44,515 nt of DNA from a virus. The position numbers and the translations under genes were made by a program. Shown here in pieces: positions 8,859 through 40,423 of the stretch (its first letter is position 1; each line of letters begins with the position of its first letter). The notes beneath the pieces are model-generated. The model was not told the origin of the DNA. It saw only the letters and a program-made list of their open reading frames with translations, and ran no database searches. The stretch lies in UHGV virus genome UHGV-1858859, one strand, 5' to 3'.

Positions 8859-8990
8859 TCATTCCAGCACCCACAGATAAATCGCGATGAACATACCTAA
8901 TACGGCGACCATCATGCCGTATTGGCCCTCGTGACAGTAGACACCGGCGGCAAATCCCGCCAGTACCGCGATAATCAGTTTACTTGGCAT
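8859..8990 (-). CDS. small hydrophobic protein (43 aa)
   Basis: MPSKLIIAVLAGFAAGVYCHEGQYGMMVAVLGMFIAIYLWVLE; its ATG overlaps the polymerase stop codon. Confidence 0.3.
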   Translation of the reverse strand: MPSKLIIAVLAGFAAGVYCHEGQYGMMVAVLGMFIAIYLWVLE

Positions 8991-11900
8991 AACGCTTCAT
9001 CTCCGCACCTTCCGCGACAAGAGGGAAGCCTTCTGCCCACTCAGGCAACGCGCACATTAATTTTTCCAGCTCAGGCACCGTGTAATCCGGCGTATCTGGA
9101 GTTTCACATACCAGTTCATCGTGTACCGAAAGCACGATGGGATACCCGCCACCCTCAACATTAATCATCGCATATGCGAGTAAATCACGGCACAGCGCCT
9201 GAACAATGTTTTCGCAGGCTTTGCCGCCGTGTGTGTACAGGGTAGTCCATTGGCGGGTTAACTGGTTTTCACCTTGGTACTTGATTCGCACATTCGTGTT
9301 TACCCGTCCGTCTTCGTCTGTTTCTTTTGTCACGCTAACGCCGATTCCTGGATACGAGAGGATACGGCCCGACGGCAACTCCATACACAACCACCAACCG
9401 GGAACCTTCCTGCCGGATGAATCGAATTCTACCGTACGCCATATGCGGATAGCCCTTTCCCTGTTCCTGCGCAAGTGTGCTCCCGCCCAAAATTCACGAC
9501 CAGGATTGCGAACAGCGGCTAAAATTCCGTCTTTAAGGTCGCGCCAGAACGCTACTGTTTCCGGGTGTGACTCACGCCACATACGCTTGATTGCGTCACA
9601 GGTACGCCATACTTTCTTATCAAGAATGTACGATGGTCTGTCATCCTTTTCACCAGGATGCGGTGGTCGCTTGGCTTCCTGAATACGCGCCCATTCATAA
9701 CCACGTGCAGTAGCCGCCCATATATGATCAGGGAAAGTACCGTCCATTGTTTTTGCCATCTCGATAAGGTCAAGACCTAAGTTTTTGGCGAACGTAACGA
9801 ACGCTCCGACGCCGCCCTCGTAGCCGAGACCGAGCTCGCAGTTATGCGCCACAAGAAAGCCAGAGTCGGAAGCTATGAGAAAACGGTTGCCGTCGTCCAC
9901 ATCAATCAGGTCGTAAACCGGCTCGCAGTAGGTTAATTTCCCGTTCAAGCTCAGCAATGCGGGCAACGGCAGCATCGTACTTTCGTTGAAGCTCAGGTAT
10001 CCGCCGTCTGTTACGGCAGTTTTCCGAACGGCTGACAAACCGAATGTTTCCAGGCTCGTAGTTACCGTCTGTGTCGATTCTGTCCATTTCGAGGTTTGGG
10101 TCATCCCAGCCTTCCAGAGTTTGAACATATCTAAGAAACGACCTTTTATCGGTCCTCCACTGGTCACACACCGTGATACCCCTTGCCCCATAGTTTTTAT
10201 AACCCTTATCTCTGGGGCTTGTTGTTCGCACGATTGCCGCCGACAACCGGTTGAGCAATCGCGTTCTGTGCGCGTCATCTGGCATTGCGTCTTCGTAGCA
10301 GAAATATTGTTTACGATATCTTTTTGTCGCTTCAAGCGCGCAGCGGTTGCATTGAGTGGTTTTACCCGCTCTGACATTGTCATAATAGACCCGCCCTGGC
10401 ATCTCCCCACAATCACATTGGGCGAGTAGTTGTCTTTGGCCTTGTCGTTTAGATAGCTCACGTAGGATAACCAGGCGACCCCACCTCTCCCCAGGGCGAG
10501 GCCCATCATATATTTGTTTGAAACGAGTTGCTTTGCCGCCTTCCAGGAATGCGTCAAGATTTTGTGGTCTTCGGTCATTAGAACCCCGTCCACATTTATC
10601 ACTGGTTTCCACCCCATAAGGTGCGCGCCTTTTGTATTCACCCATTTTTCGCCACTCCATACTTTATCTGTTGGTGTAACCGCCATAATATCCTTAAATC
10701 CGCCATCGGTCAAAACTTGGGTATGACGGTGAAGGCAAGCCTTACCTATCTGGCGTAAGTCTTTACGTTCTTTCTTAATATCGTCGGGGTCCATGCCAAA
10801 CATCTTGCCCGCGGTTACACAGTAAATATCCAGTCCGGCGCGGAACGTATCGAGCGCGGTTTCTTCACCTGCCAGCCAAGCAAGCCCGCGGCCTTCAACG
10901 TTAGAGTAATCGGCGACGACAAACTTACGCCCGGCTTCCGGTATTATGCAGCTACGCACAGTAGATGCCGTTAGTTTGGCTACATCAAAACGGCGATGGG
11001 CGCGGCCCTTAAGTAACGCCGAAATGCCTTTATCCAGCTCATAATCGTGATAGTAACCGCGTGCCAGGTTCTGCGGCTGGAAGCCTTTACCTGCCCATCG
11101 CAGAGTACGTTTTGCCCCACCGTACTGCAAGCAACCGCGACGGCGGTCGTCCGAAGAGCGGCCCAGCAGCAGCGGGTTATATTTCGTTGACGCGGTGGAC
11201 GCGGCCCCGAGGCGCATTTCGATAATTGTGCGTGCGTCGTCCGGTAAATCATCGTCCGCAAGCAAGTCATTCAGTGTCGACTTCTGCGCGTTGTGAATAC
11301 GGTGTGCAGGCGCAAGTTCACGCAGAATCGGAAGAAAGTCCTTACCAGTAAGCGAGCCGCCGTATTTGCGTTGGGCTTCCTCCTGTAACTGCGCTTTGTG
11401 TTTCTCCACGGCTTCAATAGCGGCTTCCGCCAGTGCAACGTCAACCTTAAACCCGCGGTCGTTGATTAACTGGTCCAGCTCCAGTACACGGTCTTCGAAC
11501 TCAGAGTTACCCCAACGCGGCAGCTTATGGAAGACTTCACGCATCGCAGTGATGTCGCTCACGGCGTACTTGATGAACAGCGCCCACTCGTCCGGGTGTG
11601 TTTCTGCGGTGTAGCGGCGGATTTTGTAATTCTTCGGTGTCGGTTTAGAGAAACGCTGAATCAGCGCCTTGCCGCGTTTATCTTTTGCGTTGTCTGCTGA
11701 CACGCCCAGCACTTCGCACAACGCATCGAGGGAACCCGGCAGCGCGTGACGAAACGCCCAAATCATCGTATCAATGGTGTTGCCTACAGGAATATCAAAG
11801 TCCCAGCAGTGTTTCATGATGAGCCTATCGAACATTGAGCCGTTGTGCCATACCATCTTAATACGACTGTTCGGCTTAACCAGGCGGCGCAGTGCGCGGT

Positions 11901-12078
11901 GCAAATCACCCGGCATGTCGCTGCCGTCGGTGCAATCCCATACCCGCACAGGCTCGTCGTCAAAAGCATATGTGCAGATAAGCACTTCGGTAGTCGGGTG
12001 TTCGGCGTAAGCGTAGGAGCCGACTTTCTTCAAATCGGCTTCGGAGAATGTTTCAAAGTCCAGGTATAAGTAGCTCAT
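8980..12078 (-). CDS. family A DNA polymerase (3'-5' exonuclease + polymerase) interrupted by an in-frame intein
   Basis: Exo I motif LDFETFS near the N-terminus, motif A DYSNVEGRGLAWLAGE, motif B split as RQIGKA / CELGLGYEGG around the intein, motif C LSVHDELV. Start set at ATG 12078 (MSYLYLDFETF) with an AAGGA RBS rather than the track start at 12132. Confidence 0.85.
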   Translation of the reverse strand: MSYLYLDFETFSEADLKKVGSYAYAEHPTTEVLICTYAFDDEPVRVWDCTDGSDMPGDLHRALRRLVKPNSRIKMVWHNGSMFDRLIMKHCWDFDIPVGNTIDTMIWAFRHALPGSLDALCEVLGVSADNAKDKRGKALIQRFSKPTPKNYKIRRYTAETHPDEWALFIKYAVSDITAMREVFHKLPRWGNSEFEDRVLELDQLINDRGFKVDVALAEAAIEAVEKHKAQLQEEAQRKYGGSLTGKDFLPILRELAPAHRIHNAQKSTLNDLLADDDLPDDARTIIEMRLGAASTASTKYNPLLLGRSSDDRRRGCLQYGGAKRTLRWAGKGFQPQNLARGYYHDYELDKGISALLKGRAHRRFDVAKLTASTVRSCIIPEAGRKFVVADYSNVEGRGLAWLAGEETALDTFRAGLDIYCVTAGKMFGMDPDDIKKERKDLRQIGKACLHRHTQVLTDGGFKDIMAVTPTDKVWSGEKWVNTKGAHLMGWKPVINVDGVLMTEDHKILTHSWKAAKQLVSNKYMMGLALGRGGVAWLSYVSYLNDKAKDNYSPNVIVGRCQGGSIMTMSERVKPLNATAARLKRQKDIVNNISATKTQCQMTRTERDCSTGCRRQSCEQQAPEIRVIKTMGQGVSRCVTSGGPIKGRFLDMFKLWKAGMTQTSKWTESTQTVTTSLETFGLSAVRKTAVTDGGYLSFNESTMLPLPALLSLNGKLTYCEPVYDLIDVDDGNRFLIASDSGFLVAHNCELGLGYEGGVGAFVTFAKNLGLDLIEMAKTMDGTFPDHIWAATARGYEWARIQEAKRPPHPGEKDDRPSYILDKKVWRTCDAIKRMWRESHPETVAFWRDLKDGILAAVRNPGREFWAGAHLRRNRERAIRIWRTVEFDSSGRKVPGWWLCMELPSGRILSYPGIGVSVTKETDEDGRVNTNVRIKYQGENQLTRQWTTLYTHGGKACENIVQALCRDLLAYAMINVEGGGYPIVLSVHDELVCETPDTPDYTVPELEKLMCALPEWAEGFPLVAEGAEMKRYAK
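9841..10737 (-). mobile_element. intein (299 codons) inserted in DNA polymerase motif B
   Basis: Block A CLHRHTQVLTDGG right after motif B Lys-Ala; block B GVLMTEDHKILT; blocks F/G VYDLIDVDDGNRFLIASDSGFLVAHN followed by Cys +1. Removing it restores RQIGKACELGLGYEGG. Confidence 0.7.
9902..10660 (-). CDS. HNH endonuclease encoded inside the intein in a different reading frame
   Basis: 252-codon ORF in another frame of the same strand; contains KGYKNYGARGITVCDQW ... EMDRIDTDGNYEPGNIRFVSRSEN, resembling free-standing phage HNH endonucleases. True start uncertain. Confidence 0.6.
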   Translation of the reverse strand: MEWRKMGEYKRRAPYGVETSDKCGRGSNDRRPQNLDAFLEGGKATRFKQIYDGPRPGERWGRLVILRELSKRQGQRQLLAQCDCGEMPGRVYYDNVRAGKTTQCNRCALEATKRYRKQYFCYEDAMPDDAHRTRLLNRLSAAIVRTTSPRDKGYKNYGARGITVCDQWRTDKRSFLRYVQTLEGWDDPNLEMDRIDTDGNYEPGNIRFVSRSENCRNRRRIPELQRKYDAAVARIAELEREINLLRAGLRPD

Positions 12079-12230
12079 TTCTTTTTCCTTAAATCCAGTG
12101 CCTTCGTTTCGCTGAGTCTTATTTTCATACAATCACGACAAATCCACACATGCCTGTACCCGGCGCGGTACTCATCCGCGTACCACGGAAGCGGTTTCAT
12201 ATATCGGTATACGTGCTTACAGAAAAACAT
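12075..12230 (-). CDS. small Cys-containing protein (51 aa)
   Basis: MFFCKHVYRYMKPLPWYADEYRAGYRHVWICRDCMKI...; stop overlaps the polymerase ATG (ATGA); below track cutoff. Confidence 0.3.
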   Translation of the reverse strand: MFFCKHVYRYMKPLPWYADEYRAGYRHVWICRDCMKIRLSETKALDLRKKK

Positions 12231-12971: not shown

Positions 12972-13000
12972 AACTATAATAGCCAACTATTCAGGTGTCA
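12972..13000 (-). promoter_or_regulatory. sigma70-like promoter TTGACA-N17-TATAGT with embedded palindrome
   Basis: Minus-strand reading ttgaca cctgaatagttggctat tatagt; contains ATAATAG-ccaa-CTATTCA (plus strand 12975-12992). Confidence 0.6.
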
Positions 13001-15435: not shown

Positions 15436-15464
15436 ACTATAATAGTGAACTATTCACATGTCAA
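15436..15464 (-). promoter_or_regulatory. sigma70-like promoter TTGACA-N17-TATAGT with embedded palindrome
   Basis: Minus-strand reading ttgaca tgtgaatagttcactat tatagt; contains ATAATAG-tgaa-CTATTCA (plus strand 15439-15456). Confidence 0.6.
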
Positions 15465-15468
15465 TGGG

Positions 15469-15497
15469 CTTTTCTAAAATAATTAATATGGTACTAT
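15469..15497 (+). promoter_or_regulatory. candidate rightward extended -10 promoter with degenerate motif copy
   Basis: tggTACTAT (TG-n-TACTAT) at 15489-15497 with a poor -35 (cttttc); CTATTCA half-site at 15494-15500; about 30 nt upstream of the HTH gene. Confidence 0.35.
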
Positions 15498-15528
15498 TCA
15501 CATATCAACTAACTAAGGAGTAATTGTC

Positions 15529-15744
15529 ATGCAACCATCTGAACTAGGCATCCGTGTAGAAAAACGCCGTAAAGAACTCGGCATCTCCCAGCGCCGTCTG
15601 GCGGTGCTGACCGGGGTTTCCCAGGGCGCAATTAACCAGCTGGCACTTGGGGTAACCCAGGACGTCCGCCCGGCAACGCTGTTTAAACTGGCGGAAGTGC
15701 TGGAGGTAGACGCCAAGTGGCTGGCGCTAGGTGAAGGGGCTTAA
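15529..15744 (+). CDS. XRE/Cro-type helix-turn-helix transcriptional regulator
   Basis: 71 aa; HTH signature ISQRRLAVLTGVSQGAINQLALG; AAGGAG RBS; divergent from the leftward operon. Confidence 0.8.
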   Translation: MQPSELGIRVEKRRKELGISQRRLAVLTGVSQGAINQLALGVTQDVRPATLFKLAEVLEVDAKWLALGEGA

Positions 15745-18892: not shown

Positions 18893-18921
18893 TTGCACAC
18901 CCCAACATAATAGGATACTAT
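18893..18921 (+). promoter_or_regulatory. sigma70-like promoter TTGCAC-N17-TACTAT with embedded palindrome
   Basis: ttgcac accccaacataatagga tactat; motif ATAATAG-gata-CTATTCA at 18907-18924; a 36-bp block is repeated as an exact inverted copy at 40388-40423. Confidence 0.65.
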
Positions 18922-18946
18922 TCACTTATCGAAACGAGACAGATGA

Positions 18947-20462: not shown

Positions 20463-20491
20463 TTGCACACTTGGATAGAATAGGCTACTAT
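20463..20491 (+). promoter_or_regulatory. sigma70-like promoter TTGCAC-N17-TACTAT with motif copy
   Basis: ttgcac acttggatagaataggc tactat; CTATTCA at 20488-20494; followed by leader cgaacgagaggagagacagaag-ATG. Confidence 0.65.
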
Positions 20492-20522
20492 TCATTTACA
20501 CGAACGAGAGGAGAGACAGAAG

Positions 20523-29882: not shown

Positions 29883-29938
29883 CCCCATGAAGGTATGCCT
29901 ATCTCTGGCATCGACCAATCTTCATGGGGTTTTCTTAT
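29883..29938 (+). terminator. long stem-loop with T-run
   Basis: ccccatgaag ... cttcatgggg 10-bp arms with a 27-nt loop, followed by ttttcttat; encloses the ATG at 29895 used by the track. Confidence 0.4.
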
Positions 29939-29948
29939 AGGGTTTAAT

Positions 29949-30518
29949 ATGGGAATTGTTTTTGGTGTGGGTATTAACGATGTTTCACCAATAAGTTGCG
30001 GAGGGGTGCATATAGCGTCCTACGCCGTATGGAAGAACATGTTAAAGAGGTGCTACGACAAGAAATGGCAGCAAAGAAACAGAACTTATATAGGTTGCCG
30101 TGTGTCGGACGATTGGTTGGTGTCCAGTAATTTCAAGGTCTGGTCTGATGATTTTTATGTACCTGGGTGGCAGATAGATAAGGATTTACTTAACCCGGGA
30201 AATAAGGTTTACGATGCTTCTAACTGTGTTTTCATCCCTAAATCCCTCAATACTTTCCTAACAGCCCACGACGCTCTTCGAGGCGAACACCCACTCGGCG
30301 TACATTTCCATAAACAAAAGAAAAGATTCATCGCTCAAGTATCCGTGGATGGCGTATCTGAACAAATAGGCGCTTACGAAACCGCTCAAGAGGCACACGT
30401 AGCATGGTTTCATAGAAAAATTGAATTAGCATATGAATACAAAGGTCTTTGCGATAGCATAGACCCACGCCTTTTCGAAGGCGTCTTACGTAAGATTAAC
30501 TCAATGAAAGAGGTTTAG
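29949..30518 (+). CDS. HNH-family homing endonuclease with C-terminal AP2 domain
   Basis: N-terminal WKNMLKRCY ... WQIDKDLLNPGNKVYDASNCVFIP nuclease-like region; AP2-like HKQKKRFIAQVSVDGVSEQIGAYETAQEAHVAW. Start uncertain (ATG 29949 chosen). Confidence 0.55.
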   Translation: MGIVFGVGINDVSPISCGGVHIASYAVWKNMLKRCYDKKWQQRNRTYIGCRVSDDWLVSSNFKVWSDDFYVPGWQIDKDLLNPGNKVYDASNCVFIPKSLNTFLTAHDALRGEHPLGVHFHKQKKRFIAQVSVDGVSEQIGAYETAQEAHVAWFHRKIELAYEYKGLCDSIDPRLFEGVLRKINSMKEV

Positions 30519-30980: not shown

Positions 30981-30983
30981 TAA

Positions 30984-31014
30984 AAGGCCCCATAATGGGG
31001 CCTTAGTTTTATTT
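30984..31014. terminator. bidirectional rho-independent terminator
   Basis: aaggcccc-ataat-ggggcctt hairpin with T-runs on both strands (agttttattt on plus, ttttatcatc on minus); lies between convergent genes. Confidence 0.6.
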
Positions 31015-31530
31015 AAATCGCGCAGGCATTAACACCATAAAGGCCGTGTTTGAAAATTGTATTTTGCATCCTCTGGTTTGGTCCTGGAAATCGAAACGAG
31101 CAATTTCATTTTTGTATGCCTTAGAAATCTTGTACGCGTCTGCCAAATAGCGCAGAGTGAACCCTATACTGTCGACAACACCCGGTGTGATGTGCGCCAC
31201 GCGTCTCCAGTCAGGAAAGTTTCCTTCTACAACATCTACCGGAAGTGTACATATAAGCGCACGATTATCGTCATAGAAAGATACACTGCCGTTGTCGTGG
31301 TTTACCTCTGCGTAGTTAAATTTAGAAGGCTCTCTCCCTTTGATGTCTATGAGAGTCCCTTTCTCAACGTTGGTCTTCACATTGTCGCAGAACAATCTAT
31401 GACCGTCCGTAGACACTATCAATCCTTCAGGGTCTATGTAAAAAGCGTTCAAATAGTAGCGAACATCATTTTTAGCCCTGCATATTTTCGCCCCTACATA
31501 CGCAGGGAAAGTAATTACTGTAGTAACCAT
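31009..31530 (-). CDS. truncated DnaN (DNA polymerase III beta sliding clamp)-like protein
   Basis: DVRYYLNAFYIDPEGLIVSTDGHRLF, VVEGNFPDWRRV and C-terminal AFMVLMPARF match E. coli DnaN segments (DVRYYLNGMLFE...ATDGHRLAV, VDGRFPDYRRV, AYVVMPMRL) recalled from memory; only 173 aa against 366; AGGAG RBS and own promoter. Confidence 0.6.
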   Translation of the reverse strand: MVTTVITFPAYVGAKICRAKNDVRYYLNAFYIDPEGLIVSTDGHRLFCDNVKTNVEKGTLIDIKGREPSKFNYAEVNHDNGSVSFYDDNRALICTLPVDVVEGNFPDWRRVAHITPGVVDSIGFTLRYLADAYKISKAYKNEIARFDFQDQTRGCKIQFSNTAFMVLMPARFK

Positions 31531-31556
31531 TTCTCATCTCCTGTTTAAGTTAACTG

Positions 31557-31585
31557 AATAGTACCCTATTATGTTGGTGCGCGCA
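31557..31585 (-). promoter_or_regulatory. sigma70-like promoter TTGCGC-N17-TACTAT with embedded palindrome
   Basis: Minus-strand reading ttgcgc gcaccaacataataggg tactat, with ATAATAG-ggta-CTATTCA. Confidence 0.6.
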
Positions 31586-31861
31586 AACTATTTATTTACG
31601 TATTCCAGTTATTCCACTCAATTGTAAACGTTGGAATAAACTATTCGAATAGTTGACTTTTCACTGAAAATATGATAAGCTCCACCTGAGCTTGTGAAGT
31701 ATGAGCAAGCGACCGCGGCGCGGGCAGGTAACGGAGCGGGACGTAAGTCCTGAGTGTAGTTACGCTGACGCGTTCGGAAGGGCCATACTCTATTGCTTGT
31801 GTAAAAAGTAACTGGTTTACTGAGATTACGCCGTTTCTATGTTTAAATGATAAGGACTAGC

Positions 31862-40353: not shown

Positions 40354-40394
40354 GGGGTAGCTCCTGTTTGAGTTAACATTGTTGGTGTAAGTGA

Positions 40395-40423
40395 ATAGTA
40401 TCCTATTATGTTGGGGTGTGCAA
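40395..40423 (-). promoter_or_regulatory. sigma70-like promoter TTGCAC-N17-TACTAT, exact inverted copy of the 18893 promoter block
   Basis: Minus-strand reading cttgcacaccccaacataataggatactattcactt is identical over 36 nt to plus strand 18892-18927. Confidence 0.65.

Follow-up and report, generated by a model that had tools for sequence, protein, structure and literature searches.

The virus genome UHGV-1858859, a stretch of 44,515 nucleotides here called the window, is a complete or nearly complete 44.5 kb genome of the genus Kagunavirus (Guernseyvirinae, Escherichia coli siphophages). Among its head genes it carries a minus-strand gene (31009..31530, ATG start, stop codon included) for a 173-amino-acid protein, here named mini-clamp, which our analysis supports as a stand-alone truncated derivative of DnaN, the bacterial beta clamp. 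The protein has lost the parts with which beta builds its canonical head-to-tail ring, and it has kept, nearly unchanged, the pocket in which the clamp-binding motifs of partner proteins dock. The resemblance to DnaN is already public: GenBank records of the family read 'DNA Pol III b subunit fragment' (Bcep43 gp15), 'DNA polymerase III sliding clamp' or 'beta clamp domain-containing protein', and the paper on phage fBC-Eco01 simply names the protein clamp. Retention of the pocket is the main result beyond this clamp-likeness. In bacteria, the pocket of beta is the hub organising at least a dozen replication and repair proteins, and it is also an antibiotic target.

Clamp homology was found by sequence, profile and structure. 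Against the sequences of the PDB, phmmer retrieved beta clamps only: residues 16-116 of the mini-clamp align with residues 144-252 of E. coli beta (E = 4e-5), and a weak second stretch covers beta residues 312-365. A profile made from 43 family members gives E. coli DnaN a score of 85.8 bits. The AlphaFold2 model of the 173-residue chain is confident (pLDDT 95, pTM 0.90) and shows the clamp fold, with its repeated beta-alpha-beta-beta-beta motif; its structural neighbours are clamps, with no resolvases among them. The open reading frame is present exactly as given in a preliminary description of this DNA, which had been made from the letters alone, and the similarity to DnaN domains proposed there is borne out by these searches.

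The residue map defines what has been kept. Residues 3-116 correspond to DnaN 127-252 and residues 117-172 to DnaN 312-366, that is, domain II minus its second helix, followed by the last helix and three strands of domain III. Domain I and the segment 253-311 of DnaN have no counterpart. The truncation announced in the preliminary description is therefore real, as is the lack of domain I and of the first half of domain III (DnaN 1-126 and 253-311), but its outline of domain II plus only the last strands of domain III needs amending, since the domain III part includes a helix and domain II is itself incomplete. Only two long helices are found in the model (residues 8-17 and 126-138), the second helix of domain II being gone. 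A distant relative of 195 amino acids (P0057, pLDDT 87.5) retains this helix at residues 67-76, which makes the Kagunavirus type the most reduced one.

The residues of the beta dimer interface are I78, F106, I272 and L273 (PMC11139829). All four fall within the deleted regions (DnaN 1-126 or 253-311), so that the head-to-tail interface is missing and the mini-clamp cannot fill the role of a sliding clamp in the canonical dimeric way. The earlier statement that such a fragment would not form a normal ring by itself is thus right, as far as the canonical head-to-tail dimer is concerned. The protein is not a DnaN, as three defining features of DnaN were tested and none was found. In addition to the dimer interface, the three-domain chain of about 366 amino acids is absent: the central-domain model PF02767 scores a weak 17.2 bits, below its cut-off of 27, and a Pfam scan of the 173-residue protein gave no match to the N-terminal PF00712 or the C-terminal PF02768 domain. 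The dnaN equivalog TIGR00663, finally, reaches 20.3 bits for a cut-off of 137.65.

The pocket that receives clamp-binding motifs on beta is formed by 18 residues distributed in two subsites (PMC11139829). In the mini-clamp, 15 of these 18 residues are identical to E. coli beta, compared with 29 of the 142 other aligned positions (Fisher p=2e-7). The same holds for the 43-member alignment, in which the pocket positions show an identity to E. coli of 0.79, compared with 0.21 for the remaining positions. The anchor point of the L-F dipeptide, as well as of the L73/F74 plug of the delta subunit, is subsite I, which is identical at all 12 positions; subsite II, the Gln site, is identical at 5 of 8. 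Nearly all invariant columns of the family belong to pocket motifs (TDGHR, PDWRRV, Y128 and MPxR), and the segments DVRYYLN...TDGHRLF, FPDWRRV and MPARF are exactly the walls of the pocket. At the sequence level, the clamp-binding-motif pocket between domains II and III is therefore present. Two further positions distinguish the phage family from E. coli beta: W108, invariant in the family, is Y244 in beta, and K134, conserved in at least 90% of the family, is N329 in beta, where it lies on the channel-lining helix. Judging from their conservation, these two residues may mark a second, family-specific interaction surface.

How widespread is this protein? A profile search was run on a library of 1.8 billion proteins, in which only the best 150 cluster representatives clearly belong to this family. 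These are short (141 to 309 amino acids) and all stand-alone, and for almost all of them the match spans the whole profile; the longer members (up to 309 amino acids) carry unrelated tails, not the missing parts of a clamp. The mini-clamp is therefore a gene of its own, as initially proposed, and not a piece of a larger gene in related genomes. The total library counts (7,207 at E<=1e-10 and 25,679 at E<=1e-3) mix mini-clamps with true clamps and are unusable as a family size, because real DnaN scores about 86 bits against the family profile. With tblastn, homologues were found in 223 phage records (Escherichia, Salmonella, Klebsiella, Proteus, Burkholderia, Vibrio and others), and BFVD holds many phage proteins of 160 to 240 amino acids with the same truncated fold. 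A plasmid search with a distant relative listed matches that were almost all megaplasmid dnaN genes, or chromosomes filed as plasmids. We found no functional or structural study of the family in the literature, subscription journals being poorly covered by our search.

The genomic address of the gene varies. It stands antisense between head-morphogenesis and scaffold/capsid genes in Kagunavirus, Cornellvirus, Dhillonvirus, Burkholderia phage Bcep43 and one metagenomic contig. Elsewhere it is part of early or replication operons, next to primase-dUTPase-methylase, DUF932, Pol A, ParB-HTH, Nmad5 or radical-SAM genes. No neighbour is constant across phages, and this lack of a conserved phage partner gene fits a ligand supplied by the host. 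The replication equipment of the phages varies as well: Kagunavirus and Dhillonvirus encode a family-A polymerase (the Dhillonvirus Pol A is 62% identical to the Kagunavirus one), and no DNA polymerase was found, by annotation or by tblastn, in the complete genomes of Vibrio phage pYD38-A and E. coli phage C130_2, both of which have a homologue.

The explanation that we favour, with a confidence that stays somewhat short of even, is that the mini-clamp is a soluble receptor for clamp-binding motifs that does not encircle DNA. It would be a minimised beta: domain I, one channel helix and the first half of domain III, all needed for the canonical head-to-tail ring, were lost, and the cleft between domains II and III, where motifs of the Q-L-x-L-F type dock, was kept. 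Expressed from an early/middle-type promoter, it would bind host proteins that are ordinarily partners of the beta clamp, for instance the delta wrench of the clamp loader, Pol III alpha/epsilon, Hda, MutS/MutL or Pol II/IV/V. The outcome would be either competition with host beta for these partners, or their bridging to the replication/recombination machinery of the phage. We infer the binding of clamp-binding motifs by the pocket, the host origin of the ligand and the ensuing competition or recruitment: ring parts that have been shed, a pocket left almost intact, varied replication strategies and the lack of a constant phage partner are most simply accounted for by binding to the clamp-binding motifs of the host. 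The affinity of the delta subunit is reported to be about 50 times higher for a monomeric variant of beta than for the dimer (PMC11139829), so a pocket module that is not part of a ring could be a strong binder. Together with the perfect subsite I, this preference makes delta an attractive, if speculative, candidate ligand.

The functions put forward in the preliminary description (clamp mimic or decoy for host replication, or processivity adaptor for the phage polymerase) would remain candidates. Pocket retention supports the general idea of binding to what beta binds; a dedicated role with the phage polymerase and, as a general role, a blunt shut-off of host Pol III are both countered by the phages that have no polymerase. 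Among the 81 ORF products of the window, searched with Q-phi-x-[LM]-[FLI] and a six-residue regular expression, no clamp-binding motif stands out: seven matches occur in five proteins, for some six to seven expected by chance (a rough estimate by hand), and none is in the polymerase, helicase, primase or single-stranded DNA-binding protein (SSB). The termini of the replication proteins do not resemble clamp-binding tails either. A QVLLF motif in the head-morphogenesis protein was considered and rejected, as it is equally conserved in phage Bas73, which does not have the mini-clamp gene, and is absent from Bcep43 gp16.

Several points weigh against a receptor for host motifs. In subsite II, three residues depart from E. 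coli beta (N320T, V344T and M364A). Pocket residues are the best conserved of DnaN generally, and their retention could be due in part to the stability of the fold or to how homologues are recognised; any homologue that can be detected should show some of this enrichment. Phages without a polymerase need host Pol III and would be harmed by a general Pol III decoy, so that the competitor version requires selectivity or tight dosing. The adaptor version requires a second interface on the mini-clamp, and none was identified. Last, close relatives such as Bas73 and phiEc3 lack the gene and can dispense with it.

We consider rather unlikely, though worth stating, the wider proposal of a 'pocket-only' clamp in phages of many genera. 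The protein would then be a relic of beta, 1.5 domains in size, whose sole conserved function is to present the cleft off DNA and so to rewire the whole host clamp network, for example by trapping the delta wrench or by drawing Pol III, Hda or proteins of mismatch repair away from host clamps. At its boldest, this proposal has four subunits forming a six-domain ring, with a symmetry that no sliding clamp has shown so far. If a widespread natural protein of 170 to 220 amino acids does keep just the pocket, it would represent a new class of factors by which phages take over the host or recruit replisome components. A pocket-keeping mini-clamp would also offer a minimal scaffold on which clamp-partner interactions can be studied or inhibited, and a test of how far the clamp fold can be reduced. 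Since it is encoded on a small accessory cassette, with natural knock-out relatives in Bas73 and phiEc3, its function is directly testable.

Other explanations were weighed. The mini-clamp might be a true sliding clamp whose quaternary structure is new, in which four subunits of 1.5 domains, each contributing three beta-alpha-beta-beta-beta motifs, pair their half-domains and their domain-II edges over two-fold axes and so close a six-domain processivity ring. Arithmetic and pseudo-symmetry would allow it (4 x 1.5 = 6 domains), a half-domain standing alone is uncommon and may require a partner, the near-invariant K134 lies on the helix that lines the channel of beta, and the distant relatives of 190 to 220 amino acids, with three helices per subunit, would bring 12 helices to the tetramer. 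However, one channel helix is lost in the 173-residue subtype, the window encodes no clamp loader, and the pockets would sit on both faces of the ring, unlike in any clamp handled by known loaders. None of the best 150 representatives is long enough to hold two copies, and basic character is inconsistent: the isoelectric point (pI) is 8.3 for the window protein, with a family median of 7.0 and a spread so wide that it is uninformative as a sign of DNA binding. We therefore judge such a ring improbable. A touch less probable in our estimation is that the mini-clamp, without forming a ring, tethers the phage family-A polymerase or gives it processivity, in the manner of herpesvirus UL42 and UL44, which have the clamp fold without encircling DNA and hold their polymerase via the equivalent cleft. 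The presence of Pol A in Kagunavirus and Dhillonvirus, the position of the gene two genes downstream of Pol A in a metagenomic contig (L016) and the mildly basic nature of the window protein would agree with it. Yet the homologues of pYD38-A and C130_2 occur without any polymerase, the window Pol A has no clamp-binding motif and a C-terminus unlike known clamp-binding tails, the gene is absent from close relatives that retain Pol A, and the family as a whole is not basic. More generally, the herpesvirus factors (UL42, UL44, PF-8 and BMRF1) possess two full domains and a basic DNA-binding face and are always paired with a viral polymerase, whereas the mini-clamp family is also found without a polymerase, so that the pairing is not obligate, and is not consistently basic.

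To another scenario we give a small chance only: the mini-clamp would be an accessory of DNA-modification or DNA-handling modules (Nmad5, ParB-like proteins, Dam/Dcm methylases), whose enzymes it would link to the clamp partners of the host or to DNA under replication, and in this way it might help to escape host defence or play a part in triggering it. In Dhillonvirus vB_EcoS-101114BS4 the gene is in an operon with Nmad5 (PF18757, E 1e-54), located directly upstream (1646-2410 in L011); a ParB-HTH protein is encoded upstream of the homologue in Vibrio phage pYD38-A and Klebsiella 6991; Dam methylases flank it in C130_2; and a radical-SAM gene follows it in L015. Cloned Nmad5 of Dhillonvirus is toxic, and mutations that let the phage escape the Tmn defence system map to this gene (PMC11846954). 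Against this scenario, these partners vary among phages, the gene is monocistronic in the window and in phage TheodorHerzl, without any such neighbour, the Tmn paper (PMC11846954) makes no mention of the clamp-like neighbour gene, and no PADLOC-DB family matches the protein at E up to 1. Least of all do we believe in a functionless, decaying fragment of a captured dnaN, or in a RusA-like Holliday-junction resolvase, the probability of which seems close to nil. Labels are what speaks for them: the word 'fragment' in the annotation of Bcep43 gp15 ('DNA Pol III b subunit fragment'), and the name 'RusA-like Holliday junction resolvase' given to PHROG 3007, which matches residues 13-172 of the 173 (E 3.6e-36). 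Decay is contradicted by the intact stand-alone homologues of the 223 phage records, by the short stand-alone proteins that make up the best 150 representatives and by the purifying selection seen in the invariant motifs. The confident clamp fold contradicts decay and resolvase alike. Membership of the RusA fold or family was tried and rejected: no RusA Pfam entry matches at E up to 10, and the structural neighbours are clamps. The label of PHROG 3007 is therefore an annotation error for the family, and many phage genomes carry this wrong 'RusA-like resolvase' name for a mini-clamp, others being labelled 'sliding clamp'.

Comparison with known systems helps to situate the protein. Its homology with E. 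coli DnaN (PDB 2POL/1MMI) is clear, above all in the pocket; it differs from it by its size (173 amino acids compared with 366) and by being phage-borne, accessory and located on a movable cassette. Other short clamp-like proteins of phages (gp15 of Bcep43 and Bcep781, Dhillonvirus gp07, PHROG 3007 and, in BFVD, those of Serratia phage Rovert, Pantoea phages LIET2 and PSKM, and BcepNazgul) belong to the same family, share the 1.5-domain core and often occupy the same antisense site between head-morphogenesis and scaffold/capsid genes. The window protein belongs to the most reduced subtype, and some relatives differ by extra tails or by residing in replication or early operons. E. coli itself is said to make beta*, a shorter, UV-inducible dnaN product started internally and devoid of domain I, which Skaliter, Paz-Elizur and Livneh reportedly described in 1996 as a clamp in a non-dimeric assembly; our literature search did not retrieve it. 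By that account beta* consists of two complete domains, II and III, in contrast to the 1.5 domains of the mini-clamp, which is moreover a separate, diverged gene. It would be a precedent for truncated clamps that are functional and that assemble otherwise than as the dimer, and as such would speak for the ring of four subunits considered above.

Phages are known to interfere with, or to use, the host clamp network by other means. Gp168 of phage Twort (PDB 7EVP) blocks clamp loading (PMC11139829), and MuC of phage Mu reportedly enlists the beta clamp for late transcription, in a study where a clamp-binding motif is discussed (PMC12867686). Both proteins bind the clamp, whereas the mini-clamp imitates the binding site of the clamp and so would act on the clamp's partners.

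The gene is preceded by its own expression signals, which we could read directly and which agree with the earlier description. A ribosome binding site (RBS), AGGAG, is located 7 nt upstream of the ATG (31538..31542, minus strand). The predicted promoter (31558..31586, minus strand) consists of TTGCGC (31586-31581), a 17-nt spacer and TACTAT (31563-31558), and leftward transcription is predicted to start near 31551. A generic sigma-70 scan did not call this promoter, because only 7 of 12 consensus positions are matched. The same architecture is nevertheless found at three other sites, so that the window contains four near-identical promoters (18907, 20477, 31557 and 40394) of the form TTGCAC/TTGCGC-N17-TACTAT, whose spacers hardly differ; an RBS and a start codon lie behind each of them.

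Overlapping the spacer and the -10 hexamer of the mini-clamp promoter is a palindromic, operator-like element, AATAGTACCCTATTAT (31557..31572, unstranded). It has seven matches in the window for 0.2 expected, a number reached in none of 100 shuffled sequences. The copies of the palindrome AATAGTnnnCTATTAT (12976-12991, 15439-15454, 15483-15498, 18907-18922, 20477-20492, 31557-31572 and 40394-40409) are associated with two promoter architectures, that described above and a second class, at 12976, 15439 and 15483, of the form TTGACA/TTGATA-N17, in which the palindrome is inside the spacer and the -10 is TATAGT at 12976 and 15439, and a poorer TAATTA at 15483. Besides that of the mini-clamp, the promoters concerned are those of ssb, of a leftward early operon adjoining the gene of an HTH_3 (Cro/CI-type) regulator, of two rightward operons of small genes and of a superinfection-immunity/phosphoesterase operon. 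None of the seven copies has a structural gene directly behind it. The seven sites are a candidate regulon, and from its shared control region the mini-clamp gene would therefore group with ssb and other early/DNA-metabolism genes, despite its address in the head module. Two copies adjoin the HTH_3 regulator gene (15529..15744), whose product is the obvious candidate for binding the palindrome. In the fBC-Eco01 paper, the same consensus is given as PHIRE 'phage promoters', for a 'phage RNA polymerase', but the annotation of phage Ivi, which is 99% related to the window, contains no such enzyme. The Kagunavirus RNA-seq paper (PMC12645636) does not report on the mini-clamp gene, and we found no transcript data for it in the literature.

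Downstream, a hairpin terminator (30984..31004, unstranded, from a terminator scan and folding) is common to the mini-clamp gene and to the head-decoration gene that converges on it from the plus strand. Its G+C-rich stem of 9 bp folds at -17.7 kcal/mol on the plus strand and -15.8 kcal/mol on the minus strand (z of -3.4 and -3.2, about -3.3). The terminator can thus be called bidirectional, as it had been, with the nuance that its U-tract is good on the plus strand and weaker on the minus strand. The gene is also antisense to the adjoining head and lysis genes, another point on which the first account was correct. Together, these signals support the view that the mini-clamp gene forms an independent leftward transcription unit within the head module.

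Terminator, gene and promoter/operator make up a cassette (30982..31601, minus strand) that is 97% identical over 622 bp to a unit of fBC-Eco01. Its position differs between the two phages: it lies between the portal and head-morphogenesis genes in fBC-Eco01, and between the decoration and spanin genes in the window. The terminator and promoter/operator boundary sequences occur a second time in fBC-Eco01, at the window's site, around a different antisense cassette, which contains two genes (L001, 813-1402). In Bas73, the decoration-spanin junction is occupied by yet another antisense gene, of 67 amino acids (L007, 2005-2208). This junction is a hot spot for different small antisense cassettes, each behind the same boundary sequences as the mini-clamp cassette. 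From this arrangement, the shared boundary sequences probably serve as recombination points. The cassette has the attributes of an autonomous, 'moron'-like element, namely its own predicted promoter and terminator, and a presence and position that vary among close relatives.

Over the 2 kb surrounding the gene, the window is 99% identical to phage Ivi and 93 to 98% identical to several named Kagunavirus phages. Following the Ivi annotation, the gene order is terminase, portal, Mu-F-like head-morphogenesis, HNH gene (absent from Ivi), Ig-like decoration, mini-clamp (antisense), spanins, scaffold and major capsid protein. Two open reading frames of the region deserve comment. On the strand opposite to the mini-clamp gene, a frame of 163 amino acids with a TTG start (31057..31548, plus strand) was treated as a shadow ORF, because the conserved protein family is encoded by the minus strand. 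Between the head-morphogenesis and decoration genes, a frame of 207 amino acids (29895..30518, plus strand) has no counterpart at that place in Ivi; it is probably a mobile homing-endonuclease insertion, given that an HNH homing endonuclease is annotated at the same spot in related records.

An insertion was also noticed in the polymerase gene of the window. Pol A (8980..12132, minus strand) is 1050 amino acids long, compared with 746 in the 99%-related Ivi, and contains an in-frame insertion of about 293 amino acids (residues ~468-760) that ends in '...FLVAHN|C'. This insertion is probably an intein, because inteins characteristically have His-Asn, with a Cys behind it, at their C-terminal splice junction.

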